A stretch of DNA of 64,000 nt from Escherichia coli (GTDB lineage: Bacteria; Pseudomonadota; Gammaproteobacteria; Enterobacterales; Enterobacteriaceae), in the NCBI RefSeq assembly GCF_003018115.1, contig NZ_CP027457.1; one strand, 5' to 3'. Shown piece by piece: positions 6,991 to 44,506 of this stretch. The stretch's first letter is position 1, and every line of letters starts with the position of its first letter. The notes under the pieces were generated by a model. The model made no database searches. It was not told the origin of the DNA and worked only from the letters and a program-made list of their open reading frames with translations. The translations under genes and the position numbers were made by a program.

Positions 6991-7211
6991 CCTGCCACCT
7001 TTTTTTTACCTTTTGCCGCTATGATGCCGATCGTTTCTTGAGGTTATTATTCAGTTTTGCAAATTAGCGCAAAGAAATTCTGGAATCTTCCTTCCTGATT
7101 TTGCATTGCATTCTGCCGTTGCGGCAATTTAGTGCTATTTTCGAGCAAATTACACACGGAGGTAAACACTAATGTTTACTTTGTTGATATACTCAGCGGC
7201 AGGGAGGCGAT

Positions 7212-7388
7212 GTGAAACAAAGCGAGTTCAGACGTTGGCTCGAATCTCAGGGCGTCGATGTAGCGAATGGCAGCAACCATTTGAAAGTCAGGTTTCATGG
7301 GATGCGCAGTGTCATGCCGCGTCACCCCTGCGATGAGATTAAAGAACCATTGCGTAAAGCAATCCAGAAACAACTCGGTTTGAGTTAA
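7212..7388 (+). CDS. hicA: HicA mRNA interferase toxin (type II toxin-antitoxin)
   Basis: 58-aa ORF from a GTG start (VKQSEFRRWLESQGV...), absent from the track because it is under 60 aa; GGAGG Shine-Dalgarno 5 nt upstream; directly upstream of hicB. Confidence 0.75.
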   Translation: MKQSEFRRWLESQGVDVANGSNHLKVRFHGMRSVMPRHPCDEIKEPLRKAIQKQLGLS

Positions 7389-7433
7389 TCGCCAATTAAA
7401 AAGGTTAATGACATGCGAGAGACAGTCGAAATT

Positions 7434-7850
<417 letters not shown>

Positions 7851-15120: not shown

Positions 15121-15314
15121 TTTTGCCACCTTTTATCATTGCCCCTATGTGTATAGTACGGGTTAAGAAAATCCGCAATAATACTCATTCTGAAGATGGA
15201 TAAGGGCAAGTTGCTGTTTGATGATTTTTTCTCAAACCGGTGAAAAAACTTGATGCACGTCAAAAAATGACGCATATTTGCGCGCGTTTTATTCATCTGG
15301 CTGGACGCCCGTAC

Positions 15315-15488
15315 ATGTCTCTCTATCAACATATGCTTGTTTTTTATGCGGTTATGGCAGCAATCGCATTTCTTATCACCTGGTTTCTTTCTCACGATAA
15401 GAAACGCATCCGTTTCTTAAGCGCCTTTCTGGTGGGGGCAACATGGCCGATGAGTTTCCCGGTGGCGCTGTTGTTTTCACTGTTTTAA
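15315..15488 (+). CDS. ortT: Small membrane toxin OrtT (YdcX)
   Basis: 57-aa ORF (MSLYQHMLVFYAVMAAIAFLITWFL...) inside track ORF 15240..15488. Confidence 0.7.
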   Translation: MSLYQHMLVFYAVMAAIAFLITWFLSHDKKRIRFLSAFLVGATWPMSFPVALLFSLF

Positions 15489-25897: not shown

Positions 25898-28006
25898 ATG
25901 TCAACCGGATTACGTTTCACACTGGAAGTGGACGGCCTGCCACCGGACGCTTTTGCGGTGGTTTCCTTTCATCTCACCCAGTCACTCTCTTCACTCTTTT
26001 CCCTCGATCTCTCCCTGGTCAGCCAGCAGTTTCTCTCCCTTGAATTTGCGCAGGTGCTGGACAAAATGGCCTACCTGACAATATGGCAGGGTGATGATGT
26101 ACAGCGCCGGGTGAAAGGTGTGGTGACCTGGTTTGAACTGGGGGAGAACGACAAAAACCAGATGCTGTACAGCATGAAGGTGCACCCGCCGCTGTGGCGT
26201 GCCGGTCTGCGCCAGAACTTCCGTATCTTCCAGAACGAGGACATCAAAAGCATCCTCGGCACGATATTGCAGGAAAACGGGGTGACCGAGTGGAGTCCGC
26301 TGTTCAGTGAACCGCATCCTTCCCGTGAGTTTTGTGTCCAGTACGGTGAGACTGATTACGATTTCCTGTGCCGGATGGCGGCGGAGGAAGGCATCTTCTT
26401 TTATGAGGAGCATGCTTACAAAAGTACCGACCAGAGCCTGGTGCTGTGCGACACGGTCCGCCATCTGCCCGAATCTTTTGAAATCCCCTGGAACCCGAAC
26501 CCCCGTACCGAGGTGAGCACCCTCTGCATCAGCCAGTTTCGCTACAGCGCACAAATCCGCCCTTCTTCCGTGGTGACCAAAGACTACACCTTTAAACGCC
26601 CCGGCTGGGCAGGACGTTTTGATCAGGAAGGCCAGCACCAGGATTACCAGCGCACGCAGTATGAGGTGTATGACTACCCCGGACGTTTCAAGGGCGCCCA
26701 CGGGCAGAACTTTGCCCGCTGGCAGATGGAGGGCTGGCGAAACAATGCAGAAACCGCGCGGGGAATGAGTCGCTCGCCGGAGATATGGCCGGGACGGCGA
26801 ATTGTGCTGACGGGGCATCCGCAGGCGAACCTGAACCGGGAATGGCAGGTGGTGGCGAGCGATCTTCACGGCGAACAGCCGCAGGCGGTACCGGGACGCA
26901 GGGGTTCAGGCACCACGCTGGATAACCATTTTGCGGTAATACCGGCAGACCGGACATGGCGACCACAGCCGTTGCTGAAACCGCTGGTGGATGGCCCGCA
27001 GAGCGCCGTCGTGACGGGACCGGCAGGCGAGGAAATCTTCTGCGACGAACATGGTCGCGTGCGGGTGAAATTTAACTGGGACCGCTATAACCCGTCAAAC
27101 CAGGACAGTTCATGCTGGATCCGTGTGGCACAGGCGTGGGCAGGCACCGGCTTTGGCAACCTGGCGATACCGCGTGTGGGTCAGGAGGTGATTGTGGACT
27201 TCCTCAACGGCGATCCGGACCAGCCGATTATTATGGGGCGTACCTACCACCAGGAAAACCGCACACCCGGCAGCCTGCCGGGGACGAAGACGCAGATGAC
27301 CATTCGTTCGAAAACCTATAAGGGCAGCGGGTTTAATGAACTGAAGTTTGACGATGCGACAGGGAAAGAACAGGTCTACATCCACGCGCAGAAGAACATG
27401 AACACCGAGGTGCTGAATAACCGCACCACGGATGTGATAAACAACCATGCTGAGACCATTGGCAACAATCAGATGATTGCGGTTACCAACAATCAGATAC
27501 AGACGGTGGGCGTTAACCAGATAGAGACGGTGGGCAGTAACCAGATCATTAACGTGGGTTCTGTTCAGGTGGAAACGATTGGACTTGTTCGTGCGCTGAC
27601 CGTGGGCGTGGCGTACCAGACGACGGTAGGTGGCATTATGAACACTTCGGTGGCTCTGATGCAGTCCTCGCAGATCGGTTTGCATAAATCGTTGAGGGTC
27701 GGGCTGGGTTATGACGTCAAAGTCGGAAATAACGTTACCTTCACCGTTGGTAAAACGAAAAAGGATGATACCGGGCAGACCGCGATTTACTCCGCCGGTG
27801 AGCATCTGGAGCTCTGCTGTGGTAAGGCAAAGCTGGTGCTGACAAAGGACGGTCAAATTTTTCTCAACGGCACAAAAATTCATTTGCAGGGTAAGGAGCA
27901 GGTTAATGGTGACTCACTGTTGATTAACTGGAACTGTGCAGCCTCGAAATCCCCACCGAAGACCCCTGATGAAAAGCAGGATACGCCGGATATGAGAGAG
28001 TACTGA
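25898..28006 (+). CDS. vgrG: Type VI secretion spike protein VgrG (Rhs-element vgr gene)
   Basis: Start at ATG 25898 (MSTGLRFTLEVDG...) after GGAGG; gp27/gp5-like regions and C-terminal Val-Gly repeats (IQTVGVNQIETVGSNQIINVGSVQVETIG). Confidence 0.85.
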   Translation: MSTGLRFTLEVDGLPPDAFAVVSFHLTQSLSSLFSLDLSLVSQQFLSLEFAQVLDKMAYLTIWQGDDVQRRVKGVVTWFELGENDKNQMLYSMKVHPPLWRAGLRQNFRIFQNEDIKSILGTILQENGVTEWSPLFSEPHPSREFCVQYGETDYDFLCRMAAEEGIFFYEEHAYKSTDQSLVLCDTVRHLPESFEIPWNPNPRTEVSTLCISQFRYSAQIRPSSVVTKDYTFKRPGWAGRFDQEGQHQDYQRTQYEVYDYPGRFKGAHGQNFARWQMEGWRNNAETARGMSRSPEIWPGRRIVLTGHPQANLNREWQVVASDLHGEQPQAVPGRRGSGTTLDNHFAVIPADRTWRPQPLLKPLVDGPQSAVVTGPAGEEIFCDEHGRVRVKFNWDRYNPSNQDSSCWIRVAQAWAGTGFGNLAIPRVGQEVIVDFLNGDPDQPIIMGRTYHQENRTPGSLPGTKTQMTIRSKTYKGSGFNELKFDDATGKEQVYIHAQKNMNTEVLNNRTTDVINNHAETIGNNQMIAVTNNQIQTVGVNQIETVGSNQIINVGSVQVETIGLVRALTVGVAYQTTVGGIMNTSVALMQSSQIGLHKSLRVGLGYDVKVGNNVTFTVGKTKKDDTGQTAIYSAGEHLELCCGKAKLVLTKDGQIFLNGTKIHLQGKEQVNGDSLLINWNCAASKSPPKTPDEKQDTPDMREY

Positions 28007-28073
28007 TCCCGTACCTGTTCGATATTCATTAACAAACCAGCATTAAAAATAAACAGAAGAAGGAATTTGAATC

Positions 28074-31000
28074 ATGAGCGGAAAACCAGCGGCGCGTCAG
28101 GGAGATATGACTCAGTATGGCGGTCCCATTGTCCAGGGTTCGGCAGGTGTAAGAATTGGCGCGCCAACTGGCGTGGCGTGCTCGGTGTGTCCGGGCGGGA
28201 TGACCTCGGGCAACCCGGTGAACCCGCTGCTCGGTGCAAAAGTACAGCCCGGCGAGACGGACCTTGCGCTGCCCGGCCCGCTGCCGTTCATTCTCTCCCG
28301 CACCTACAGCAGCTACCGGACCCGGACGCCTGCACCGGTGGGCGTTTTCGGCCCCGGCTGGAAAGCGCCTTCTGATATCCGCTTACAGCTACGTGATGAC
28401 GGACTGATACTCAACGACAACGGCGGGCGGAGCATTCACTTTGAGCCGCTGCTGCCAGGGGAGGCGGTGTACAGCCGCAGCGAGTCCCTGTGGCTGGTGC
28501 GCGGTGGTAAGGCAGCACAGCCGGACGGCCATACGCTGGCACGGCTGTGGGCGTCGCTGCCGCCGGATATCCGGTTAAGCCCGCATCTTTACCTGGCGAC
28601 CAACAGCGCACAGGGGCCGTGGTGGATACTGGGGTGGTCTGAGCGGGTGCCGGGTGCTGAGGACGTACTGCCAGCGCCGCTGCCGCCGTACCGGGTGCTT
28701 ACCGGGATGGCGGACCGCTTCGGGCGGACGCTGACGTACCGGCGTGACGGACGGTGCCGGGCGTGAGTTCCGTCTGGTGCTGACCACACAGGCGCAGCGG
28801 GCGGAAGAGGCCCGGCAGCAGGCGGTCGTCGCCGGAGCAAAACGACCGGACATTCCTGATTCACTGCCGGAGAGCACAGAGTACGGCCCCGACAGGGGTA
28901 TCCGTCTTTCAGCGGTGTGGCTGATGCACGACCCGGCATACCCGGAGAATCTGCCCGGTGCGCCACTGGCGCGGTACACGTATACGGAAGCCGGTGAACT
29001 GCTGGCGGTATATGACCGCAGCAATACGCAGGTGCGTGCTTTCACGTATGACCCGCAGCACCCGGGCCGGATGGTGGCGCACCGTTACGCGGGAAGGCCG
29101 GAGATGCGCTACCGCTACGACGATACGGGGCGGGTGGTGGAGCAACTGAACCCGGCAGGGTTAAGCTACCGCTATCTTTATGAGCAGGACCGCATCACCG
29201 TCACCGACAGCCTGAACCGGCGTGAGGTGCTGCATACAGAAGGCGGGGCCGGGCTGAAGCGGGTGGTGAAAAAAGAACTGGCGGACGGCAGCGTCACGCG
29301 CAGCGGGTATGACCCGGTGGGGCGGCTTACGGCGCAGACGGACGCGGCGGGACGGCGGACAGAGTACGGTCTGAATGTGGTGTCAGTCGACATCACGGAT
29401 ATCACCACGCCGGACGGGCGGGAGACGAAATTTTACTATAACGACGGGAACCAGTTAACGGCAGTGGTGTACCCGGACGGGCTGGAGAGCAGCCGGGCAT
29501 ATGATGAGCTGGACAGGCTGGTAACGGAGACATCGCGCAGCGGGGAGACAGTACGCTACCGCTATGATGATGCGCACAGTGAATTACCGGCCACAACAAC
29601 AGATGCGACGGGCAGCACCCGGCAGATGACGTGGAGCCGCTACGGTCAGTTGCTGGCGTTCACCGACTGCTCGGGCTACCAGACCCGCTATGAATACGAC
29701 CGCTTCGGCCAGATGACGGCGGTCCACCGCGAGGAAGGCATCAGCCTTTACCGCCGCTATGACAACCGTGGCCGGTTAATCTCGGTGAAAGACGCACAGG
29801 GCCATGAAACGCGGTATGAATACAACGCCGCAGGCGACCTGACTGCCCTCATTACCCCGGACGGCAACCGGAGCGAGACACAGTACGATGCGTGGGGAAA
29901 GGCGGTCAGCACCACGCAGGGCGGGCTGACGCGCAGTATGGAATACGACCTTGCCGGACGCATCACCACGCTGACCAACGAGAACGGCAGCCGGAGTGAG
30001 TTTACCTACGATGCGCTTGACCGGCTGGTACAGCAGCGCGGCTTTGACGGGCGGACGCAACGTTACCACTATGACCTGACCGGAAAACTCACGCAGAGTG
30101 AAGATGAGGGGCTTGTCACCCTCTGGCACTACGACGAATCGGACCGCCTCACTCACCGCACGGTGAACGGCGAACCGGCAGAGCAGTGGCAGTATGATGG
30201 CCACGGCTGGCTGACAGAAATCAGCCACCTGAGCGAAGGCCATCAGGTGGCGGTGCATTACGGTTATGATGATAAGGGCCGCCTGGCCGGGGAGCGCCAG
30301 ACGGTGCATAACCCGGAGACGGGGGAACTGCTGTGGCAGCATGAGACAGAGCACGCATACAACGAACAGGGGCTGGCAAACCGCGTCACGCCGGACGGCC
30401 TGCCGCGGGTGGAGTGGCTGACCTACGGCAGCGGTTATCTTGCGGGGATGAAGCTGGGCGGGACACCTCTGGTCGAGTATACGCGGGACCGCCTGCACCG
30501 GGAAACTGCGCGCAGCTTTGGTAACGGAACGGGCAGTACAGCCGCATATGAACTGACCAGCACTTACACCCCCGCAGGCCGGTTACAGAGCCAGCACCTG
30601 AACAGCCTGATGTATGACCGTGACTACGTGTGGAATGACAACGGCGACCTGGTGCGCATCAGCGGCCCGCGACAGACGCGGGAATACGGCTACAGCGCCA
30701 CGGGCAGGCTGGAGAGCGTGCGCACCCTCGCACCGGACCTGGACATCCGCATCCCGTATGCCACCGACCCGGCGGGAAACCGGCTGCCGGACCCGGAGCT
30801 ACACCCGGACAGCACGCTCACGGCGTGGCCGGATAACCGCATCGCGGAGGATGCGCACTATGTTTACCACTATGATGAATACGGCAGGCTGACGGAGAAG
30901 ACGGACCGCATCCCGGCGGGTGTGATACGGACGGACGACGAGCGGACCCACCACTACCACTACGACAGCCAGCACCGTCTGGTGTTCTACACGCGGATAC

Positions 31001-32250
31001 AGCATGGCGAGCCGCAGGTGGAGAGCCGCTACCTCTGTGACCCGCTGGGACGGCGAATGGCGAAACGGGTATGGCGGCGGGAGCGTGACCTGACAGGATG
31101 GATGTCGCTGTCGCGTAAACCGGAGGTGACGTGGTATGGCTGGGACGGAGACAGGCTGACGACGGTACAGACAGACCAGACCCGTATCCAGACGGTCTAC
31201 CAGCCGGGGAGCTTCACGCCGCTCATCCGTATCGAGACAGAGAACGGCGAACGGGAGAAAATGCAGCGCCGCAGCCTAGCGGAGAAGTTACAGTCGGAAG
31301 GGAGTGAGGACGGTCACGGTGTGGTGTTCCCGGCTGAGCTGGTGAGGATGCTGGACAGGCTGGAGGAAGAAATCCGGGCAGGCCGCGTGAGCAGTGAAAG
31401 CCGGGCGTGGCTTGCGCAGTGCGGGCTGACGGTGGAGCAACTGGCCAGACAGGTGGAGCCGGAATACACACCGGCGCGAAAAGTTCATCTTTATCACTGC
31501 GACCACCGGGGCCTGCCGCTGGCGCTCATCAGCGAAGACGGCAATACGGCGTGGCGCGGGGAGTATGATGAATGGGGCAACCAGCTTAATGAGGAGAACC
31601 CGCATCATGTGTATCAGCCATACCGCCTGCCGGGGCAGCAGTATGATGAGGAGTCGGGGCTGTACTATAACCGCAACCGGTACTATGATCCGTTGCAGGG
31701 GAGGTATATTACCCAGGATCCGATTGGGCCAGTGGGGGGGTGGAATCCCTATAGTTATGTGCTTAATAATCCAGCCCAGTTTATTGACCCAACAGGTTTA
31801 ACTCAAGAGGACAATTGGACCTATGGTGAGGTAGGTAATAGCTGTGTTACGAGTCAACGCGATTTTACTCCCCCGCCCGGACTTGCGGATATGAAAGCCA
31901 GCATTGGCGCTGCCTGCTCAAGAAACAATGCTTCCAGAAACTGCCACCCCGTAGATGGTAGTAATGCTTCTGCACCATCGGATAAAGCCGCATGGGAAAA
32001 TATTCAAAATGCGACAAATGGTAAAGATTTATCTGGTGGTGGAAATATGTTTTGTGTAGGAAATGAGGACTGTGCGGTTGTTCATAGCTGTCGTGAAATA
32101 GTTAATGCTCGACACCCGGCAGGACGAGTGCGTGAACGTGTAACTCCGTTAACAACGTCAGGAACAGCAACGCTCAATGGAACAACAGTTTACTTTTATA
32201 ATGATCCCCGGAATGGTAATTGTCCTGCTCACGAATATATTCCTCAATAA
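28074..32250 (+). pseudogene. rhsE: PAAR-Rhs polymorphic toxin, copy 1, split by a frameshift near 28740-28766 (ORFs 28074..28766 and 28744..32250)
   Basis: N-terminal PAAR-like region, YD-repeat core, DPxGL boundary. Relative to copy 2 about 38 nt (encoding ...[12 protein letters not shown]...) is missing, shifting the frame. Symbol by K-12 position only. Confidence 0.7.
31801..32250 (+). other. Rhs copy 1 C-terminal variable toxin domain (CT1), function unknown
   Basis: About 149 aa following DPTGL at 31786..31800; drop in GC content; Cys-rich; no motif recognised. Confidence 0.6.
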
Positions 32251-32300
32251 AGAAAGGTGGCCAGACTAAGCTCTAGCCACATTTTTTGGAGATCCTTTTC

Positions 32301-32924
32301 ATGAAAAGGTTTTTTATAACATGTTGCGTTATGACATTATTTTTATTTGTTAAATGTAAAGCAGCGTGTGTAACTTCCTTATATGAGGTTCAGCAATCGC
32401 TCTTTACATACATTTATTTGATTAGACAAGACCCTGTTCATTTTGATTCATATATTAAGAATGTGCATAACGAATTAAAAATATTCCATGATATTGATAA
32501 AGCCATGAATATAGCCTCAGATATGGTCAAAATTATTGATATAAAGACCCGTTTATCATTTAATAATGATTTATATATATTACAAGGGGAGCGACAGTAT
32601 GCAATAGTTAAGAGTGAAGGGGAAAGTAGTCAATTAAAATCATCAGCATTTATCATATCTAATTACCCACCATTTAAAAACAAAGTTCTGTTAATTTTAT
32701 CCGCTACTAGTCCCGTTCAGTTGGTTATATTGTCTTTTGATCAATGTCTTAATGTGGAGGTGTTATTTGATTCAATGTCTCCAGTTTTCGCTAAGTATAG
32801 AGAAGATATTAGTGCAACATTACCATTATGGAAGGTTATTTTGACAAAAAATGATATAGAATTATATGAGTACCATAGAACAAATCCATACTCACTTAAC
32901 AAATTATTGAGCATGTCAAAATAA
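32301..32924 (+). CDS. Putative immunity protein for Rhs CT1 (signal peptide/lipoprotein-like)
   Basis: AT-rich ORF directly downstream of rhs; start at ATG 32301 (MKRFFITCCVMTLFLF...) after GGAG; hydrophobic N-terminus with Cys. Confidence 0.6.
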   Translation: MKRFFITCCVMTLFLFVKCKAACVTSLYEVQQSLFTYIYLIRQDPVHFDSYIKNVHNELKIFHDIDKAMNIASDMVKIIDIKTRLSFNNDLYILQGERQYAIVKSEGESSQLKSSAFIISNYPPFKNKVLLILSATSPVQLVILSFDQCLNVEVLFDSMSPVFAKYREDISATLPLWKVILTKNDIELYEYHRTNPYSLNKLLSMSK

Positions 32925-33121
32925 CGGTCAAGTATTCAACGTTGTAATATTATTCCTTTTGCTGAGTGTCTCGAACGGCTAAAGTTGACGTAAAATGCCA
33001 CGTTTTGTGGGCAAACCGAATCGGTTAAAAAGCATGGTCCGGGAAAAGCTAAACATCAGCGCTATCGGTGCCAAATGTGCAGCAGGCCTTTCCAGCCTGA
33101 TTACCAGGGCAGGGCGGGATC

Positions 33122-34410
33122 AGGGAAAGATCATCAGAAGTTCACTTTTTGTACTAAATAATTTGCATTTTATATTTAAAAATTGAGATATTCCTCATTA
33201 CCTGAAGCTGTTTTTTATTGCTTATACATGATCAAATACTCCTTACATAATTAAGGAGAACAAAATGGAACTTAAAAAATTGATGGAACATATTTCTATT
33301 ATCCCTGATTACAGACAAGCCTGGAAAGTGGAACATAAATTATCGGATATTCTACTGTTGACTATTTGTGCCGTTATTTCTGGTGCAGAAAGCTGGGAAG
33401 ATATAGAGGATTTTGGTGAAACACATCTCGATTTTTTGAAGCAATATGGTGATTTTGAAAATGGTATTCCTGTTCACGATACCATTGCCAGAGTTGTATC
33501 CTGTATCAGTCCTGCAAAATTTCACGAGTGCTTTATTAACTGGATGCGTGACTGCCATTCTTCAGATGATAAAGACGTCATTGCAATTGATGGAAAAACG
33601 CTCCGGCACTCTTATGACAAGAGTCGCCGCAGGGGAGCGATTCATGTCATTAGTGCGTTCTCAACAATGCACAGTCTGGTCATCGGACAGATCAGGACGG
33701 ATGAGAAATCTAATGAGATTACAGCTATCCCAGAACTTCTTAACATGCTGGATATTAAAGGAAAAATCATCACAACTGATGCGATGGGTTGCCAGAAAGA
33801 TATTGCAGAGAAGATACAAAAACAGGGAGGTGATTATTTATTCGCGGTAAAAGGAAACCAGGGGCGGCTAAATAAAGCCTTTGAGGAAAAATTTCCGCTG
33901 AAAGAATTAAATAATCCAGAGAATGACAGTTACGCAATTAGTGAAAAGAGTCACGGCAGAGAAGAAATCCGTCTTCATATTGTTTGCGATGTCCCTGATG
34001 AACTTATTGATTTCACGTTTGAATGGAAAGGGCTAAAGAAATTATGCGTGGCAGTCTCCTTTCGGTCCATAATAGCAGAACAAAAGAAAGAGCCAGAAAT
34101 GACGGTCAGATATTATATCAGTTCTGTTGATTTAACCGCAGAGAAGTTCGCCACAGCAATCCGAAACCACTGGCACGTGGAGAATAAGCTGCACTGGCGT
34201 CTGGACGTGGTAATGAATGAAGACGACTGCAAAATAAGAAGAGGAAATGCAGCAGAATTATTTTCAGGGATACGGCACATCGCTATTAATATTTTGACTA
34301 ATGATAAGGTATTCAAGGCAGGGTTAAGACGTAAGATGCGAAAAGCAGCCATGGACAGAAACTATCTGGCGTCAGTCCTTGCGGGGAGCGGGCTTTCGTA
34401 ATCTTGCCCT
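33122..34410 (+). mobile_element. H-repeat (H-rpt, ISAs1-family) element, copy 1
   Basis: About 1.29 kb unit bounded by imperfect inverted repeats AGGGAAAGAT ... ATCTTGCCCT; three near-identical copies in the window. Confidence 0.8.
33265..34401 (+). CDS. ISAs1-family transposase (H repeat-associated protein), copy 1
   Basis: 378-aa [31 protein letters not shown]...; DDE-type transposase family. Confidence 0.85.
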
Positions 34411-35114
34411 GGGGCAACCTGCTTAATGAGGAGAACCCACATCACCTGTATCAGCCATACCGCCTGCCGGGGCAGCAGCATGATGAGGAGTCAGGGCTTT
34501 ATTATAACCGTCACCGGTACTATGACCCGCTACAGGGGAGGTATATCACCCAGGATCCAATCGGGCTAAGAGGTGAATGGAATCTGTATAAATATCCATT
34601 AAACCCTGTTCGGTTTATAGATTCTTTGGGTTTAAAATTCCATGTTAACGGTGATCCAAGTGATTTTAATCAGGCTGTTGAGTATTTAAAACAAGATTCA
34701 CGAATGAAAGAAGCTATAGATTTTTTATCAAGCTCTGAAGAAACCATAAAGATAGAGTATATTGATGAAACCGACGTTAGATTTGACCTGGATAAAATGA
34801 CTATATATTGGAATAGTAAGGCGGCTTTATTTTGTTCAACTGATTTAAAATCGAAATCACAATCACCTGCATTAGGTTTGGGGCATGAGTTTGCTCATGC
34901 GCACTTATATCTTATTGATAAGGATGGTTATATGGGGCTTGTGAGACGTGCGGATGAACAATATAAAAATAAAGAAGAGGCGAGAGTTATCACTTTAATT
35001 GAACAGCATGCGGCGAAAACTTTAGGTGAGTGTACCAGAACAGCATATAATGGAGTGTATTATCGTGTGAATACACCAACGCAGACGGCAACAATAAATG
35101 GCACGCCAGAATAG
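34404..35114 (+). CDS. Orphan Rhs C-terminal fragment with HExxH (zincin-like metallopeptidase) toxin domain (orphan CT-a)
   Basis: Begins at the H-rpt right end with the rhs core 3' end ([18 protein letters not shown]...DPIGL...[13 protein letters not shown]), then a divergent domain containing [10 protein letters not shown]; probably lacks its own start codon. Confidence 0.65.
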
Positions 35115-35575
35115 TGAGATTTTTCATGATGAAATATTTGATGGCTTTATTGTCTCTATTTTCTGCTTCGGTATTGGGGATGGGGCGAGTGAATGATTTA
35201 TGTGGAATAGATAGTGTGAAAACGATAGAAATAATTAATCTTCCAGCATATGTTACCACCTTAACCCCGCTTAGCAAGGAAGGTCTCAAGAGAATATACA
35301 AACATAAAGTGGTGGTGAATGGGGTTAGCGATTTTTATGCTGGTGAGATAATTGATCTATTGCAAATGAAGTATTTCAGGAAGGAGGAGGATAACGATAT
35401 AAGATGGGGGGTTAACATTGTTTCGAATAAAAATAATAAATGTGAAATTTATTTTGATGGTTTTGGTGAATGTGGAAGCGTGAATGGCATTAATGTATGT
35501 TTTGAAAAAAATGAAATGATATATTGGATTAAAAAAGAAATCCCTTTTCTGTCGCAAGAAATAGATGGGCTTTAA
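35114..35575 (+). CDS. Putative secreted immunity protein for orphan CT-a
   Basis: ORF overlapping the toxin stop; likely start at ATG about 35126 (MMKYLMALLSLFSASVLG..., signal peptide); AT-rich. Confidence 0.6.
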   Translation: MRFFMMKYLMALLSLFSASVLGMGRVNDLCGIDSVKTIEIINLPAYVTTLTPLSKEGLKRIYKHKVVVNGVSDFYAGEIIDLLQMKYFRKEEDNDIRWGVNIVSNKNNKCEIYFDGFGECGSVNGINVCFEKNEMIYWIKKEIPFLSQEIDGL

Positions 35576-35651
35576 ATGGTAGGGCAATATTCAAAGACAG
35601 TATAGGTAACTATTTGTATGGACATGTAAGGTAAAAGAAAAGGAATAAACC

Positions 35652-38600
35652 ATGAGCGGAAAACCGGCGGCGCGGCAGGGCGACATGACCCGCAAGGGAC
35701 TGGATATTGTGCAGGGTTCAGCGGGTGTGCTGATAGGTGCGCCGACGGGAGTGGCCTGTTCGGTGTGTCCGGGAGGGATTACCTATGCTAACCCGGTGAA
35801 CCCGGTGCTGGGTGCGAAGGTGCTGCCGGGCGAGACGGACCTTGCGCTGCCCTGCCCGCTGCCGTTTATTCTTTTCCGCGCCTACAGCAGCTACCGGACC
35901 AGAACACCCGCGCCGGTGGGGGTGTTTGGTCCCGGCTGGAAAGCGCCCTTCGATATCCGCTTACAGATACGCGATGAAGGCCTGATACTCAACGACAGCG
36001 GCGGCAGGAGCATTCACTTTGAGCCGCTGTTTCCCGGCGAGATAAGCTACAGCCGCAGCGAGTCACTCTGGCTGGCGCGGGGCGGAGTAGCGGCGCAGCA
36101 CAGTTCGCAGCCGCTAAGCGCGCTCTGGCAGGTGCTGCCGGAAGATGTTCGCCTGAGTCCGCATGTGTACCTGGCGACAAACAGCCTTCAGGGGCCGTGG
36201 TGGATACTCAGCTGGCCGGAGCGGGTGCCGGGGGCGGACGAGGTGCTGCCGCCGGAGCCGCCCGCATACCGGGTGCTGACGGGCGTGGTGGACGGCTTCG
36301 GGCGGACGCTGGCCTTTCACCGGGCAGCGGAGGGTGACGTGGCGGGCGCGGTGACGGGGGTGACGGACGGCGCGGGCCGCCGTTTTCACCTGGTGCTGAC
36401 CACACAGGCGCAGCGGGCGGAAGAGGCCCGTAAACCGCACACCGCTTCGTTATCTTCCCCTGACAGTCCCCGCCCTCTCTCAGCTCCTTCCTTCCCCGAC
36501 ACGCTGCCCGCCGGTACAGAGTACGGTGCCGATAACGGTATCCGGCTGGAGGCGGTATGGCTGACACACGACCCGGCATACCCGGATGAACAGCCGACTG
36601 CGCCGCTGGCGCGCTACACGTACACGGCCGGTGGTGAACTGCGGGCGGTGTATGACCGCAGCGGGACGCAGGTGCGCGGGTTTACTTATGATGCGGAGCA
36701 CGCCGGGCGGATGGTGGCGCACCATTATGCGGGTAGGCCGGAGAGCCGCTACCGGTATGATGATACCGGTCGGGTGACGGAGCAGGTCAACCCGGAGGGG
36801 CTGGACTACCGCTTTGAGTACGGAGAGAGCCGGGTAATCATCACGGACAGCCTGAACCGGCGGGAGGTGCTGTACACGGAAGGCGAGGGTGGCCTGAAGC
36901 GGGTGGTGAAGAAGGAGCATGCCGACGGGAGCATCACCCGCAGCGAGTATGATGAGGCGGGGAGGCTGAAGGCGCAGACGGATGCGGCGGGGCGGCGGAC
37001 GGAGTACCGGCTGCATATGGCGTCTGGAAAGCTGACTTCAGTGGTACTGCCGGACGGCAGGACGGTACGGTATGGTTACAACAACCAGTTGCAACTGACG
37101 TCAGTGACATATCCGGATGGTTTACGCAGCAGCCGGAAATATGACCGTCAGGGCAGGCTGGCGGAAGAGACCTCGCGCAACGGTAACATTACGCGCTGGT
37201 TTTATGATTCTTCCCGCAGTGGCCTGCCCTGTGCGGTGGAAGACGGAACCGGGGTGAGGCGGAGAATAACGCGAAACCGGTACGGTCAGCTTCAGGCGTT
37301 TACGGACTGCTCGGGGTACACGACGCGGTATGAGTATGACCGGTACGGTCAACAAATCGCCGTTCACCGGGAAGAAGGCATCAGCACTTACAGCAGTTAT
37401 AACCCGCGCGGTCAACTGGTCAGTCAGAGGGATGCGCAGGGGCGTGAAACCCGTTATGAGTACAGCGCCGCAGGAGACCTGACAGCAACGGTATCACCGG
37501 ACGGTAAACGCAGCACCATCGCATATGATAAACGCGGGCGTCCGGTGAGTGTGACGGAAGGCGGTCTGACGCGCAGCATGGGGTATGACGCTGCCGGGCG
37601 CATCACCGTGCTGACCAACGAGAACGGCAGCCAGTCCACGTTCCGGTATGACCCGGTTGACAGGCTGACTGAACAGCGCGGTTTTGACGGCCGGACGCAA
37701 CGTTACCACTATGACCTGACCGGAAAACTCACACAGAGTGAAGACGAGGGGCTTATCACCCTCTGGCACTACGATGCGTCGGACCGCATCACGCACCGGA
37801 CGGTGAACGGCGACCCGGCAGAGCAGTGGCAGTATGATGAGCACGGGTGGTTAACCACCCTCAGCCATACCAGTGAAGGCCACCGCGTGTCGGTCCACTA
37901 CGGCTATGACGATAAAGGCCGCCTGACCAGTGAGCGCCAGACGGTGGAGAACCCGGAGACGGAGGAACTGCTGTGGCAGCATGAGACAGAGCACGCATAC
38001 AACGAGCAGGGGCTGGCAAACCGCGTCACGCCGGACAGCCTGCCGCCGGTGGAGTGGCTGACGTATGGCAGCGGCTATCTGGCGGGCATGAAGCTGGGCG
38101 GGACGCCGCTGCTGGAGTTCACGCGCGACCGCCTGCACCGTGAGACGGTGCGCAGCTTCGGCAGCAGGGCAGGCAGTAATGCCGCATATGAACTGACCAG
38201 CACATACACCCCCGCAGGCCAGTTACAGAGTCAGCACCTGAACAGCCTGGTATATGACCGTGACTACGGGTGGAATGACAACGGCGACCTGGTGCGCATC
38301 AGCGGCCCGCGACAGACGCGGGAATACGGCTACAGTGCCACGGGCAGGCTGGAGAGCGTGCGCACCCTCGCACCGGACCTGGACATCCGCATCCCGTATG
38401 CCACGGACCCGGCGGGCAACCGGCTGCCGGACCCGGAGCTGCACCCGGACAGTACCCTCACAGTGTGGCCGGATAACCGCATCGCGAAGGATGCGCACTA
38501 TGTTTACCACTACGATGAATACGGCAGACTGACGGAGAAGACGGACCGCATCCCGGCGGGTGTGATACGGACGGACGACGAGCGGACCCATCACTACCAT

Positions 38601-39845
38601 TACGACAGCCTGCACCGCCTGGTCCATTACATCCGTATCCAATATGAGGAGCCACTGGTGGAGAGCCGCTACCTCTATGATCCGCTGGGCCGCCGGACGG
38701 GTAAACGGGTGTGGCGGCGGGAGCGTGACCTGACGGGGTGGATGTCGCTGTCGCGTAAACCGGAGATGACATGGTACGGCTGGGACGGAGACCGCCTGAC
38801 GACGGTACAGACAGACACCACGCGAATCCAGACGGTCTACCTGCCGGGGAGCTTCACGCCGCTCATCCGCATCGAAACGGAGAACGGCGAACGGGAGAAA
38901 GCGCAGCGTCGCAGTCTGGCGGAGAAGTTACAGTCGGAAGGGAGTGAGGACGGTCACGGTGTGGTGTTCCCGCCTGAACTGGTGATGATGCTGGACAGGC
39001 TGGAGGGAGAGATACGGGCAGACCGCGTGAGCCGTGAAAGTCGCCAGTGGCTGGCGCAGTGCGGACTGACGGTGGAGCAACTGGCCAGACAGGTGGAGCC
39101 GGAATACACACCGGCGCGAAAAGTTCATCTCTATCACTGCGACCACCGTGGCCTGCCGCTGGCGCTCATCAGCGAAGACGGCAATATAGCGTGGAACGCG
39201 GAGTATGATGAGTGGGGCAACATGCTGAACGAGGAGAACCCGCATCACCTGTATCAGCCATACCGCCTTCCGGGTCAGCAGTACGATGAGGAGTCGGGGC
39301 TGTACTATAACCGGAACCGGTACTATGATCCGTTGCAGGGGAGGTATATCACCCAGGACCCGATAGGGCTGATGGGGGGATGGAACCCTTACCTTTATCC
39401 GTTAAATCCTGTCACAAATACTGACCCTCAGGGGTTAGAAGCGATTCTTCCTGGTCCGTTCCCCTTCCCAATTCCATTGCCAAAAAGTCCTGTACAGCAG
39501 GAAGCAGATGCAAATGCAGCAAAAACATTGACAAAATGGTGGAAAAACTTTGGAGATGCCATTAATAATCCGCCACCTCCTGGTAATTGTTCTAATGATT
39601 ATTATGAACATCTGAAAAATCAAAAAGAAGCTATTTGCAACCAAAAAAGAAAGTGTTACCCAACCGATAGTTGTGAAACTATACTTCAGAAAGGTGTGTA
39701 TGGTCTTGCTTGTGTATCAGCAAGGAATAATATTATGAATCAATGTTTTAATGGAGGTGATTTACGGCATCAGCTTGAAAGAGAAACGGTCAGGGGAACT
39801 ATGATGTCATGTACTACATTGGCTGTAATAAAAGGATGTTTATAA
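35652..39845 (+). CDS. Intact PAAR-Rhs polymorphic toxin, copy 2 (1397 aa)
   Basis: AAGGA Shine-Dalgarno; N-terminal PAAR-like region (CSVCPGG), YD repeats, conserved ...PxxxxDPxGL boundary (DPQGL at 39423..39437), variable C-terminus. Confidence 0.9.
39438..39845 (+). other. Rhs copy 2 C-terminal toxin domain (CT2), Cys-rich, function unknown
   Basis: About 135 aa after DPQGL; Pro-rich linker then Cys-rich segment (CSNDYYEHL...[14 protein letters not shown]...CVSARNN...C); AT-rich. Confidence 0.6.
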
Positions 39846-40370
39846 ATGGGAAAAGACGAGATCATAGATTATATTCAGAAAACGTTTTCTGAATATCCAG
39901 ATTATTTGAAAAATGGGGTCGTTGATGAAGACAACATTGCATATTGCCATGACGCTATAAACCTTTTTTCTGGAAAGAGTTGGATTGAATTAATGGCCAG
40001 TGATCTTTACCATTCTGAAGATGCTGTCATGTGTCTCACTAAACCAGCATTCTCATATTATATTGCAGCCTATTTAAAACTTTTTATTGAAAATTATTAC
40101 GAAGCTGATGCTTTAGTGGATACTATTTTAAATATGCTCACTCCTCCTGTTAGGAATGGTATCCCCAGCACTACATGGATAGCAAAAAATCTTGATTGCT
40201 TTAGTCGTAATAAAAGGGTGGCTATTTCTTTTACATTCCAATATTTATGTAATGAATATAATGATCCAAATACTGAAAAGGCGTTAAATATATATTGGGG
40301 ACAGTATCTGAATGAATCATTGCTTATTAAAAATGTACAGAACTCTAAAAATAAATGTAAATCACAGTAA
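39846..40370 (+). CDS. Putative cytoplasmic immunity protein for Rhs CT2
   Basis: 174-aa ORF whose ATG overlaps the rhs stop (TAAATG); no signal peptide; AT-rich. Confidence 0.65.
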   Translation: MGKDEIIDYIQKTFSEYPDYLKNGVVDEDNIAYCHDAINLFSGKSWIELMASDLYHSEDAVMCLTKPAFSYYIAAYLKLFIENYYEADALVDTILNMLTPPVRNGIPSTTWIAKNLDCFSRNKRVAISFTFQYLCNEYNDPNTEKALNIYWGQYLNESLLIKNVQNSKNKCKSQ

Positions 40371-40374
40371 GACA

Positions 40375-40575
40375 GAATCAAGCAGAAATCGTGGGCGTGG
40401 TTCGCACCCTGACGGAGGGTGTAGCGTGTACTAGATCACAGTGAGCGACATCAAAGCTTGGTCACGTTCTGGCATTACGATGAAGCCGACCGCCTGACGC
40501 ACCGTACCGTGAATGATGAAGATGCCGAGTGCTGGCAGTACAACGAACGGGGCTAGCTGACGGAAAAAGACGAGC
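40375..40575 (+). repeat. Degenerate vgrG-like and rhs-core-like sequence relics
   Basis: 40380..40440 translates to ...EIVGVVRTLTEGVA... (VgrG VG-repeat-like); 40455..40570 translates to [32 protein letters not shown]-stop (Rhs core-like, compare 30115..30230). Confidence 0.55.
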
Positions 40576-40582
40576 AGCGCAT

Positions 40583-41870
40583 AGGGAAAGATCATCAGAA
40601 GTTCACTTTTTGTACTAAATAATTCGCATTTTATGTTTAAAAATTGAGATATTCCTCATTACCTGAAGCTGTTTTTATTGCTTATACATGATCAAATACT
40701 CCTTACATAATTAAGGAGAACAAAATGGAACTTAAAAAACTGATGAAACATATTTCTATTATCCCCGATTACAGACAAGCCAGGAAAGTAGAACATAAAT
40801 TGTCAGATATTCTACTGTTGACTATTTGTGCCGTTATTTCTGGTGCAGAAGGCTGGGAAGATATAGAGGATTTTGGGGAAACACATCTCGATTTTTTGAA
40901 GCAATATGGTGATTTTGAAAATGGCATTCCTGTTCACGATACCATTGCCAGAGTTGTATCCTGTATCAGTCCTGCAAAATTTCACGAGTGCTTTATTAAC
41001 TGGATGCGTGACTGCCATTCTTCAGATGATAAAGACTTCATTGCAATTGATGGAAAAACGCTCCGGCACTCTTATGACAAGAGTCGCCGCAGGGGAGCGA
41101 TTCATGTCATTAGTGCGTTCTCAACAATGCACAGTCTGGTCATCGGACAGATCAAGACGGATGAGAAATCTAATGAGATTACAGCTATCCCAGAACTTCT
41201 TAACATGCTGGATATTAAAGGAAAAATCATCACAACTGATGTGATGGGTTGCCAGAAAGATATTGCAGAGAAGATACAAAAACAGGGAGGTGATTATTTA
41301 TTCGCGGTAAAAGGAAACCAGGGGCGGCTAAATAAAGCCTTTGAGGAAAAATTTCCGCTGAAAGAATTAAATAATCCAGAGCATGACAGTTACGCAATCA
41401 GTGAAAAGAGTCACAGCAGAGAAGAAATCCGTCTTCATATTGTTTGCGATGTCCCTGATGAACTTATTGATTTCACGTTTGAATGGAAAGAGCTGAAGAA
41501 ATTATGCGTGGCAGTCTCCTTTCGGTCAATAATAGCAGAACAAAAGAAAGAGCCAGAAATGACGGTCAGATATTATATCAGTTCTGCTGATTTAACCGCA
41601 GGGAAGTTCGCCACAGCAATCCGAAGCCACTGGCACGTGGAGAATAAGCTGCACTGGCGTCTGGACGTGGTAATGAATGAAGACGACTGCAAAATAAGAA
41701 GAGGAAATGCAGCAGAATTATTTTCAGGGATACGGCACATTGCTATTAATATTTTGACGAATGATAAGGTATTCAAGGCAGGGTTAAGACGTAAGATGCG
41801 AAAAGCAGCCATGGACAGAAACTATCTGGCGTCAGTCCTTGTGGGGAGCGGGCTTTCGTAATCTTGCCCT
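40583..41870 (+). mobile_element. H-repeat (ISAs1-family) element, copy 2
   Basis: Same terminal sequences as copy 1. Confidence 0.8.
40725..41861 (+). CDS. ISAs1-family transposase (H repeat-associated protein), copy 2
   Basis: 378-aa ORF nearly identical to copy 1 with a few substitutions. Confidence 0.85.
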
Positions 41871-42486
41871 GCCAGGGCAGCAACACGATGAGGAGTCGGG
41901 GCTGTATTATAACCGTCACCGGTACTACGATCCGTTGCAGGGGTGGTATATCATCCAGGACCCGATTGGGCTGAAGGGGGGATGGAATCTGTACCAATAT
42001 CCGCTGAATCCAGTGCAACACGTTGATCCATTAGGGCTTAGTACTATGATAATAGGTAACGGCCCCGTTCCTGATAATCCTTTTGGGCATGCTGCGGCGG
42101 CAAATCGATATGGATTAATGAGTTCGGGAACTGGGGATGAGATGGGAGCCTCTGTCTCTGATTATTTTAAAAAGATGCAACCCCGCAGAGATACCTGGAT
42201 TTGGATAATAGATACAACAGATGAAGAAGAACAATGTATGATGAATAAGGCAATAGACCTTAATAAAAAACTAAAAACTATTAACCTCGGGCCTCTTCCT
42301 GTTTTAAATAATTGTTTTAGCCGAACGAACATGATTTTTGAGGCGTGCGGGTTTAACAACCCCTCTATGAATACAAATGCGCCTATAAGCCTACAAGTGC
42401 TCGGTGAGCTTTATGGATATCAAAGATATATTATGCCTAAAGGTCCTTTCACTGGATTCCCATTTGAATTTCAAGAGGTAAAGTAA
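41839..42486 (+). CDS. Orphan Rhs C-terminal fragment with unknown toxin domain (orphan CT-b)
   Basis: From the H-rpt right end: [35 protein letters not shown]...[13 protein letters not shown], then a divergent about 149-aa domain ([10 protein letters not shown]..., two Cys). Confidence 0.6.
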
Positions 42487-42885
42487 ATGGAAATGCTTGG
42501 GAAGATATTATTGATAATTATTTCCATGATAATTATATCTTGTGATTATTATAATGCTGGCATGGACTATCAAGATAATATAGCCCTCGAGCAAGTCGTA
42601 ACATGGGATTCTGATAATATATTCACACCTAATATCTTTGAACATAATGGAAGATGTTTTATGAAGAAAAATGAAACATGGATGTTATTAAATGGAGATG
42701 CAACACCAAACATTAGAACAATGAGCAATAAGAAAATAGAATGCCTGGAGAAGAGTGAAGTAGAATGGGCTAGTAGGGTTTGCGACAGTATCACAGACAA
42801 GGAAAGGGAAAATCTGAAGGCATTAATATGTAGCAAACCAGCTAAATCAGTTAATACAGGCAAAAGACCAGCGTTAGGATATTGA
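42487..42885 (+). CDS. Putative lipoprotein immunity protein for orphan CT-b
   Basis: 132-aa ORF abutting the toxin stop; N-terminal hydrophobic segment ending in a lipobox-like IISC. Confidence 0.6.
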   Translation: MEMLGKILLIIISMIIISCDYYNAGMDYQDNIALEQVVTWDSDNIFTPNIFEHNGRCFMKKNETWMLLNGDATPNIRTMSNKKIECLEKSEVEWASRVCDSITDKERENLKALICSKPAKSVNTGKRPALGY

Positions 42886-42917
42886 AACCGGCACTGCACT
42901 CTATCACTATTACAATC

Positions 42918-44205
42918 AGGGAAAGATCATCAGAAGTTCACTCTTTGTACTAAATAATTCGCATTTTATGTTTAAAAATTGAGATATTCCTCATTACCTG
43001 AAGCTGTTTTTATTGCTTATACATGATCAAATACTCCTTACATAATTAAGGAGAACAAAATGGAACTTAAAAAACTGATGGAACATATTTCTATTATCCC
43101 CGATTACAGACAAGCCTGGAAAGTAGAACATAAATTGTCAGATATTCTACTGTTGACTATTTGTGCCGTCATTTCTGGTGCAGAGGGTTGGGAAGATATA
43201 GAGGATTTTGGTGAAACACATCTCGATTTTTTGAAGCAATATGGTGATTTTGAAAATGGTATTCCTGTTCACGATACCATTGCCAGAGTTGTATCCTGTA
43301 TCAGTCCTGCAAAATTTCACGAGTGCTTTATTAACTGGATGCGTGACTGCCATTCTTCAGATGATAAAGACGTCATTGCAATTGATGGAAAAACGCTCCG
43401 GCACTCTTATGACAAGAGTCGCCGCAGGGGAGCGATTCATGTCATTAGTGCGTTCTCAACAATGCACAGTCTGGTCATCGGACAGATCAAGACGGATGAG
43501 AAATCTAATGAGATTACAGCTATCCCAGAACTTCTTAACATGCTGGATATTAAAGGAAAAATCATCACAACTGATGCGATGGGTTGCCAGAAAGATATTG
43601 CAGAGAAGATACAAAAACAGGGAGGTGATTATTTATTCGCGGTAAAAGGAAACCAGGGGCGGCTAAATAAAGCCTTTGAGGAAAAATTTCCGCTGAAAGA
43701 ATTAAATAATCCAGAGCATGACAGTTACGCAATCAGTGAAAAGAGTCACAGCAGAGAAGAAATCCGTCTTCATATTGTTTGCGATGTCCCTGATGAACTT
43801 ATTGATTTCACGTTTGAATGGAAAGGGCTGAAGAAATTATGCGTGGCAGTCTCCTTTCGGTCCATAATAGCAGAACAAAAGAAAGAGCCAAAAATGACGG
43901 TCAGATATTATATCAGTTCTGCTGATTTAACCGCAGAGAAGTTCGCCACAGCAATCCGAAACCACTGGCACGTGGAGAATAAGCTGCACTGGCGTCTGGA
44001 CGTGGTAGTGAATGAAGACGACTGCAAAATAAGAAGAGGAAATGCAGCAGAATTATTTTCAGGGATACGGCACATTGCTATTAATATTTTGACGAATGAT
44101 AAGGTATTCAAGGCAGGGTTAAGACGTAAGATGCGAAAAGCAGCCATGGACAGAAACTATCTGGCGTCAGTCCTTGCGGGGAGCGGGCTTTCGTAATCTT
44201 GCCCT
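42918..44205 (+). mobile_element. H-repeat (ISAs1-family) element, copy 3
   Basis: Same terminal sequences; right flank is the native pptA upstream region. Confidence 0.8.
43060..44196 (+). CDS. ydcC: ISAs1-family transposase (H repeat-associated protein), copy 3
   Basis: 378-aa ORF; symbol by position next to pptA as in K-12. Confidence 0.8.
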
Positions 44206-44506
44206 GGTTCGTTAAGTTTTTCTGCATTGCCGGTAATTTTGGCATCTTCTTTGTCCGTGGCTTGTTTCAGCGTCTATAATGGGCATTAATAAATTGGCAA
44301 GCCGGGAACTTGATGTTTTCTTAATGGCATGTTGGCGAAGAATATATTCTGCAAGTTAACGTTTTTGTTGGCGCTTTATTTAAAACGGGGTAGTACAAAT
44401 ATGTACAAATTCAAGTAGGCATTATTGTCGTAAAAAAGCATCACCGGACACATGACATTCACAACGTGTGTTAATTTTACTGACATCTTTCCAAAGGAGC
44501 ACAATC

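Follow-up and report, generated by a model that had tools for sequence, protein, structure and literature searches.

A VgrG-Rhs island with four predicted toxin-immunity modules at the rhsE site of Escherichia coli

Gene content and layout of the island

The DNA analysed here is a 64-kb stretch of Escherichia coli contig NZ_CP027457.1 (assembly GCF_003018115.1), which we refer to as the window. Positions 25898-44207 are occupied by an island at the rhsE site in which, according to the open reading frame (ORF) listing and the translations, all genes lie on the + strand in the order vgrG, rhs1-CT1, imm1, H-rpt, orphan CT-a, imm-a, rhs2-CT2, imm2, rhs-core relic, H-rpt, orphan CT-b, imm-b, H-rpt (Table 1). 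CT denotes a C-terminal toxin domain and imm the gene for its predicted immunity protein. The original prediction, made from the sequence letters without database searches, had described a VgrG-Rhs island with four toxin/immunity modules, two rhs genes, two orphans and three H-rpt elements in this order, and the ORFs and family searches agree. A finer detail of it, a pair of vgr and rhs relics downstream of imm2, survives in part, in that blastx finds the rhs relic but no vgrG match in that segment. We regard the locus as very probably an rhsE-site accessory island of a type VI secretion system (T6SS), namely a polymorphic-toxin arsenal built by repeated C-terminal displacement.

Table 1. Features of the island, with positions in the window
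Feature	Position	Strand	Basis
vgrG, T6SS spike protein, 702 aa, intact	25898..28006	+	NCBIfam TIGR03361 E=5e-188, TIGR01646 E=6e-134
rhs1 N-terminal fragment, 230 aa, ends in frameshift	28074..28766	+	NCBIfam RHS_core positions 1-226, E=7e-147
38-bp deletion junction in rhs1	28733..28747 (~28737)	.	alignment with intact rhs of NZ_LR536431
rhs1 remainder, YD-repeat core	28744..31800	+	NCBIfam RHS_core positions 237-1261, 2137 bits; Pfam RHS_repeat, RHS
CT1 toxin domain, 149 aa, Cys-rich	31801..32250	+	no library family; predicted fold weakly SleB/CwlJ-like
imm1, 207 aa, N-terminal signal peptide, predicted CT1 immunity protein	32301..32924	+	translation
IS1 transposase remnant, between imm1 and H-rpt 1	~32966..33116	+	RefSeq annotation of collinear ETEC (enterotoxigenic E. 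coli) locus L001 (11836-11986)
H-rpt/ISAs1-family (ISEc1-like) element 1; transposase ORF 33265-34401	33119..34412	+	self-BLAST, RefSeq, Pfam
Orphan rhs fragment with CT-a: core stub to 34634, CT-a toxin 34635-35114	34404..35114	+	NCBIfam RHS_core positions 1187-1261
imm-a, about 148-153 aa, signal peptide	35114..35575	+	translation; no Pfam/NCBIfam match
rhs2 core, PAAR motif residues 5-8, YD-repeat core	35652..39437	+	NCBIfam RHS_core positions 1-1261, 2605 bits
CT2 toxin domain, Ntox16	39438..39845	+	PF15523 E=2.8e-11, model positions 2-83 of 85; also precomputed Pfam
imm2, 174 aa, no signal peptide, predicted cytoplasmic CT2 immunity protein	39846..40370	+	translation; weak DUF6714 E=0.17
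rhs-core relic with in-frame stop	40452..40562	+	blastx 62% aa identity to Rhs2 residues 699-735, E=2e-15
H-rpt/ISAs1-family element 2; transposase ORF 40725-41861	40583..41871	+	self-BLAST, RefSeq, Pfam
Orphan rhs fragment with CT-b: core stub to 42039, CT-b toxin 42040-42486	41839..42486	+	predicted permuted papain/NlpC-P60-fold cysteine hydrolase
imm-b, 132 aa, predicted lipoprotein, lipobox IISC, Asp at +2	42487..42885	+	translation; UniRef cluster members 'Lipoprotein'
H-rpt/ISAs1-family element 3; transposase ORF 43060-44196	42915..44207	+	self-BLAST, RefSeq

The island sits between yncH and pptA, and its flanks, yncG-yncH on one side and pptA-yddH-nhoA on the other, identify the site as rhsE. 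These flanks are collinear with the ETEC chromosome NZ_LR882990.1 at 99.8-99.9% identity. VgrG is identical to a 702-residue protein carrying that name in public records, and its counterparts in two draft assemblies (L006, GCA_054491115.1, and L007, GCA_047879945.1) have the precomputed Pfam domains Phage_GPD, Phage_base_V and Gp5_trimer_C. The vgrG gene lies 68 bp upstream of rhs1. Both rhs genes encode the YD-repeat/RHS core, with matches to TIGR03696 and to Pfam RHS and RHS_repeat beside the RHS_core scores in Table 1, and a literal P-A-A-R motif occurs at residues 5-8 of Rhs1 as well as Rhs2. The whole rhs2 ORF (35652-39845) is intact and encodes 1397 amino acids, for which the precomputed Pfam domains are DUF6531, RHS_repeat, TEN_YD-shell and RHS.

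All four toxin ORFs contain the PxxxxD[PS]xGL boundary (that of CT-a being a variant of the PxxxxDPxGL form), after which 149 (CT1), 159 (CT-a), 135 (CT2) and 148 (CT-b) residues follow. The orphan CT-a and CT-b ORFs match just the last 60-75 positions of the 1261-position NCBIfam RHS_core model. The orphan modules start exactly at the right ends of H-rpt elements, with 60-75 core codons kept. H-rpt is present in three copies of 1289-1294 bp with 97.8-98.7% mutual identity (self-BLAST), and each has an intact 378-residue transposase ORF with Pfam DDE_Tnp_1_assoc and DDE_Tnp_1 and the RefSeq name ISAs1-like ISEc1 family, which places them in the ISAs1 family. Base composition follows most of this mosaic: the GC fraction is 0.63 in the Rhs cores, 0.37-0.40 in the DNA coding for CT-a, CT2 and CT-b, and 0.30-0.34 in the immunity genes, compared with a window mean of 0.497. 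The expectation that cores are GC-rich and every CT/immunity segment AT-rich is borne out for all of these but not for CT1, which at 0.456 is only slightly below the mean.

The original prediction missed a break in rhs1. The gene is split by a 38-bp deletion that falls between 10-bp direct repeats, ACCGGCGTGA, and shifts the reading frame, and rhs1 is a pseudogene in this sequence. The draft assembly L007, which is 100% and 99.95% identical to the window on either side of the junction (26633-40924), keeps the 38 bp and encodes an intact 1404-residue Rhs1 with the same CT1. An error of sequencing or assembly could conceivably account for the deletion. Near the junction, a repeat unit of 21 bp that codes for AEEARQQ and is present in the intact rhs of NZ_LR536431 is missing both here and in L007.

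Toxin domains and their immunity partners

In public records, the names of all eight CT and immunity products are 'hypothetical' or generic only, and a literature search found no experimental test of any of them; a full-text search with motif strings of CT1, CT-a and CT-b returned no paper. PDB sequence searches with CT1, CT-a, CT2 and CT-b and with profiles A1, A2 and A4 gave Rhs core or chance matches only, and a match to 8qjc reaching into CT-a vanished once the toxin was searched alone. Searches of Pfam and NCBIfam with the four immunity proteins gave no real match, the best being DUF6714 for imm2 (Table 1); apparent serglycin matches were an artefact of the glycine-serine (GS) linkers used to join the queries. 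Export signals are found in three of the four immunity proteins, imm1, imm-a and imm-b, which makes the periplasm the probable site of action of CT1, CT-a and CT-b. None of the four CT domains had been recognizable in the sequence reading beyond an HExxH motif in CT-a. The motif is there, as HEFAH, but three of the domains can now be placed: CT2 is an Ntox16 domain, CT-a leads to M91 peptidases by way of its homologues, and CT-b has a YiiX/TseH-like fold. Structure prediction covered CT1 and CT-b.

CT1 has no match in Pfam, NCBIfam or PDB sequences, and NCBIfam searched at E<=10 with ten members of the CT1 family returned nothing over the CT1 domain. A word-indexed search found only six relatives; searched exhaustively, the family comes to 75 representatives, of which 67 score E<=1e-10. 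The domain forms the C-terminus of Rhs proteins and also of proteins with a HELTHVxQQ-type N-terminal domain. One homologue of the latter type was looked up and carries PF13699 (eCIS_core, formerly DUF4157), its toxin part having no Pfam match. Across the family four cysteines and S34 are invariant, while E10, W65, N67, D76 and R113 are nearly so. The predicted model is confident, with a predicted local distance difference test score (pLDDT) of 92.6 and a predicted template modelling score (pTM) of 0.88. In four further contexts, of which three are metagenomic, a CT1-type toxin is followed by an ORF that is homologous to imm1 (pairwise E as low as 5e-14) and likewise starts with a signal peptide; the two are found side by side in distant bacteria. 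From these comparisons we conclude that CT1 and imm1 constitute a conserved, predicted toxin-immunity pair acting outside the cytoplasm.

Some relatives are arranged differently. In P0182 and P0192 a CT1-like domain is N-terminal and is followed by an extra C-terminal domain of ~120 residues, and P0192 starts with a lipoprotein-like signal peptide; this arrangement implies that the domain is not confined to Rhs or extracellular contractile injection system (eCIS) cargo. The gene of another relative (P0159, L004:4001-5104), an eCIS_core-tagged toxin of CT1 type, adjoins ruvAB and an aldolase gene; no neighbouring immunity gene is obvious, and eCIS genes are absent from the 4 kb upstream and from the ~1 kb of contig downstream. 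PT6, a published DUF4157-linked protein that is toxic in the periplasm, was considered as a possible identity of CT1 and is an unlikely one: its representative is an 85-residue Moraxella protein, and PT6 is reported to be absent from pathogens.

CT-a has 25 homologues, and in the 20 that were aligned the zinc-site residues H84, E85 and H88 of HEFAH are invariant, as is a stretch that includes EE.RV...E..AA..L.E..R. Of these 20, ten match Pfam Peptidase_M91 (PF14891) at E<=1e-3 and 19 at E<=0.1, the best at 6.6e-9. For instance, homologues from Hafnia alvei, at 43-45% identity to CT-a, carry PF14891 and are annotated as M91 peptidases. On the strength of these matches CT-a is a predicted divergent relative of the NleD/HopH1 clade (M91), the link being transitive through its homologues, and by enzyme class we consider it likely to be a zinc metallopeptidase of the M91/NleD-HopH1 type. 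Given the signal peptide of imm-a, CT-a probably has a periplasmic target. In one public record a protein of the imm-a cluster is called 'DsORF-h1 protein', presumably a name from RhsH-era nomenclature.

CT-b likewise lacks a match in Pfam, NCBIfam and PDB sequences. Its 19 homologues come, where named, solely from E. coli and Salmonella. H17 (in FGHAA) and C92 (in NNCFSRTN) are invariant in ten sequences, the His preceding the Cys. An AlphaFold2 model (pLDDT 76.9, pTM 0.76) is similar in fold to permuted NlpC/P60 members, the closest structures being YiiX (2if6) and TseH (6v98). We think it reasonably probable that CT-b is a TseH/YiiX-like His-Cys hydrolase acting on peptidoglycan or another envelope substrate. 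In imm-b there is, at ~42582-42613, a 39-bp in-frame length difference from the ETEC relatives, so that the protein has 132 residues here and 119 as annotated there.

CT2 contains DLRH and upstream Arg residues, which fit the R / [DNE]xxH signature of Ntox16. Orthologues of imm2 with at least 90% identity occur in E. albertii and Citrobacter, and the lack of a signal peptide in imm2 suggests a cytoplasmic target for CT2. Judged from the reading frames, Rhs2-CT2 is the sole intact, deliverable effector predicted in this sequence.

Distribution, cassette exchange and function

Genome comparisons covered 5,426 complete RefSeq E. coli genomes together with the drafts L006 and L007. The locus had been described as much larger than the degenerate rhsE of K-12, and it is indeed larger than in most complete E. 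coli genomes; in none of them is at least 80% of the island matched in one place. The complete genomes nearest to it, those of an ETEC isolate and of three strains related to O169:H41, contain all the modules but are missing window positions 26608-29131. In NZ_LR882990.1 and NZ_CP024269.1, this 2.5-kb deletion leaves codons 1-237 of vgrG fused to an rhs1 truncated at its N-terminus, which implies that the same island is decaying there by a different route.

The cassettes themselves differ widely in frequency. CT1/imm1 is present in 11 of the complete genomes and CT2/imm2 in five, while CT-b/imm-b is present in 566 and CT-a/imm-a in 1078 (1018 of these at 80-90% identity). Among the matches listed for CT-a and for CT-b, the annotation often has the cassette joined to a full-length 'RHS element core protein', and the orphans of this island would thus be the working toxins of other strains. 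Over 122-158 bp, the core stubs of the orphans are 85-90% identical to the 3' cores of rhs1 and rhs2, and this homology is the substrate expected for C-terminal displacement. A replacement is seen in L006, which has a different, unrelated CT/immunity pair in the first slot and identical DNA downstream of it. At L006:2263-7145, a 1501-residue Rhs ends in an unrelated C-terminal domain after a Gly/Ala-rich stretch and is followed by a 125-residue immunity ORF, then by the same H-rpt, imm-a and rhs2-Ntox16.

Drawing on established Rhs and T6SS biology, we envisage that a full-length Rhs N-terminus with its PAAR motif would mount on the VgrG spike, that the YD-repeat shell would enclose the C-terminal toxin, and that the toxin would be freed by self-cleavage at PxxxxDPxGL. 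Firing of the T6SS would carry it into a neighbouring cell in a contact-dependent manner, and the small ORF directly 3' of each toxin would shield sister cells. Rhs1-CT1 would be disabled here by the frameshift. The orphan modules most likely represent retained immunity plus cassettes able to recombine onto a full-length rhs.

Several observations weigh against this explanation, and some of them would suit a decayed relic like the rhsE of K-12, whose toxins go undelivered and in which selection maintains the immunity genes alone, against neighbours that still fire. With respect to delivery, the window contains no T6SS core genes, the flanks consisting of housekeeping genes, and the gap between vgrG and rhs1 holds no ORF of at least 60 residues that could be an adaptor or chaperone gene (eagR/DUF1795). 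The Rhs N-terminus has DUF6531 as its precomputed Pfam domain with no PAAR family, and NCBIfam gives no PAAR match either. With respect to the toxins, CT-a on its own reaches only E=0.16 and 0.063 against Peptidase_M91, below significance, and CT-b has no match to 6v98 of TseH at E<=10, whether as a single sequence or as a profile. Finally, rhs1 is broken here and the closest complete genomes have the vgrG'-'rhs1 deletion, which together imply that the island is decaying in some lineages; two modules without a delivery domain, the rhs relic and the IS1 remnant would also be expected of a relic. Nevertheless, vgrG and rhs2 are full-length, with identical proteins in other assemblies, the four toxin ORFs and the immunity ORFs are all open, and rhs1 is intact in the near-identical L007. 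A relic is for these reasons the unlikely reading. It is more improbable again that the orphan modules, possibly along with the full-length genes, are expressed inside the producer as toxin-antitoxin-like modules acting on its own physiology, rather than serving only as recombination cassettes. The orphan Rhs of Salmonella Typhimurium offers a precedent, as outlined in PMC7043789, and in CT-b an ATG lies 3 codons past DPLGL, where public annotation calls a stand-alone 146-residue protein. However, imm-a and imm-b both carry export signals, so the orphan toxins would have to reach the periplasm, and neither of these toxins has a signal peptide. We therefore retain the T6SS accessory island, with exchangeable cassettes, as the preferred explanation.

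Within that explanation, the activity of CT1 turns on its resemblance to SleB. Both independent structural searches put SleB-type hydrolases first, at scores under the usual confidence thresholds; with Foldseek against AFDB50 the self-match alone is significant, and about 12 of the 35 other listed matches are SleB/CwlJ-type cell-wall hydrolases. Comparison with hhalign was not significant, either for CT1 profile A4 against a single SleB sequence (probability 1.2%) or for the CT1 profile against a 10-sequence SleB/Hydrolase_2 alignment made of 4f55 and nine phage endolysins (P=0.13). A low-stringency alignment, though non-significant, is collinear, and pairs tYGE, D.(S/T)GG and G.T.YFY of CT1 with vYgE, DPT.GA and IG.H.FY of SleB. 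The vYgE motif contains the catalytic Glu of SleB, and it is solely in this alignment that E10 of CT1, within helix 2-14, faces it. We see roughly an even chance that CT1 hydrolyses the glycan strands of the cell wall in the periplasm and represents a family that the searched libraries lack. The sub-threshold scores and the non-significant profile comparison make a different activity in the periplasm or outside the cell, for example disrupting membranes, inhibiting the synthesis of the cell wall or binding a eukaryotic target, a prospect just short of even, and the lack of an adjacent immunity gene beside the one eCIS_core-fused homologue examined would fit non-bacterial targets. Such activities sit less well with the lead of SleB in both structural searches, with the near invariance of Asp76 and of Glu10 in helix 1, with the exported immunity family of CT1, and with a homologue that combines the HELTHVxQQ-type domain and the CT1 domain with a segment matching SleB's N-terminal, peptidoglycan-binding part (E=1e-9). 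A bolder and correspondingly more tentative form of the hydrolase reading is that CT1 is the founding member of an undescribed toxin family, disulfide-stabilised, SleB-like and peptidoglycan-cleaving, with its own exported immunity family, carried as cargo by T6SS Rhs effectors and eCIS_core (DUF4157) proteins across many bacterial lineages.

The island is a compact natural example of E. coli stacking and swapping T6SS toxin cassettes, and it supplies four predicted effector-immunity pairs for which the literature search found no experimental characterisation. Three of the pairs, being predicted to act on the cell envelope, are candidate sources of new cell-wall-active enzymes. The locus had been put forward as a good place for undescribed toxin activities, and this holds mainly for CT1. 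A widespread domain, CT1 is the most useful lead, combining a confident predicted structure, its 75 representative homologues, no Pfam, NCBIfam or PDB-sequence entry, and a conserved exported partner; if its activity is shown, this would add a family of toxins found in Rhs as well as in eCIS cargo.

Outside the island, mapping from the reference annotation places in the upstream flank a tnpA of IS200/IS605, which the reference has as a pseudogene, together with insQ/tnpB, and also hicAB, a toxin-antitoxin pair, and ortT, an orphan toxin gene, at ~1063-2785, ~7206-7844 and ~15309-15482. Downstream of narU, at ~55853-57837, the collinear ETEC annotation places espR1, a gene for a type III secretion system leucine-rich-repeat effector, and a partial second leucine-rich-repeat gene.

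Relation to known toxins and Rhs systems

CT-a shares HExxH with the Peptidase_M91/Tox-HopH1 proteins NleD and HopH1. NleD targets host mitogen-activated protein (MAP) kinases; CT-a differs in that its exported immunity protein implies a periplasmic bacterial target instead. Tox-HopH1 is listed among RHS- and T6SS-linked toxins by Zhang et al. 2012 (PMC3482391). The same survey, the only place where Ntox16 was mentioned in the literature search, describes Ntox16 as a predicted alpha-helical toxin domain with the R / [DNE]xxH signature and lists no immunity family for it. CT2 shares with Ntox16 (PF15523) the RHS/T6SS carriage given in the family description, whereas here a conserved 174-residue ORF, predicted to be cytoplasmic, lies 3' of the toxin.

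CT1, at most a candidate member of SleB/CwlJ (Pfam Hydrolase_2), differs from that family in its four invariant cysteines and its own sequence signature. CT-b has in common with TseH (VCA0285 of Vibrio cholerae, PDB 6v98) and YiiX (2if6) the His-then-Cys order of its conserved residues, a putative catalytic pair, and with TseH the GHAA motif (FGHAAAA) and the prediction of a periplasm-located immunity protein. TseH is toxic only when directed to the periplasm, lyses permeabilised cells and has a GHAA/GHTG-type motif (PMC4453574). As modelled, CT-b probably works like TseH, though it is not a sequence-level member of that family; it also belongs to a small family and is carried on Rhs, while TseH is a stand-alone effector.

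As a whole the architecture is that of textbook Rhs C-terminal displacement and leaves the current understanding of Rhs systems unchallenged; what is new lies in toxin domains still to be characterised, CT1 above all. Poole et al. 2011 (PMC3150448) established the concept of orphan rhs-CT/rhsI modules, and the orphan-module pattern seen here agrees with the summary that PMC6730261 gives of the Rhs-CT survey in E. coli by Ma et al. 2017. With the E. coli elements RhsA-H, to the extent that they are outlined in PMC3150448 and PMC6730261, the island shares a full-length rhs, GC-rich in its core, that comes after vgrG, the PxxxxDPxGL boundary and an AT-rich CT plus immunity gene, as well as downstream orphan CT/immunity cassettes, H-rpt and the rhsE chromosomal site. 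Unlike them, it has two tandem, diverged full-length rhs genes (78-86% nucleotide identity), two orphan modules and three H-rpt elements, an arrangement that, together with an intact vgrG, has no exact counterpart among the complete E. coli genomes, and it joins two toxins that are rare in the species, CT1 and CT2, to CT-a and CT-b, which are not.

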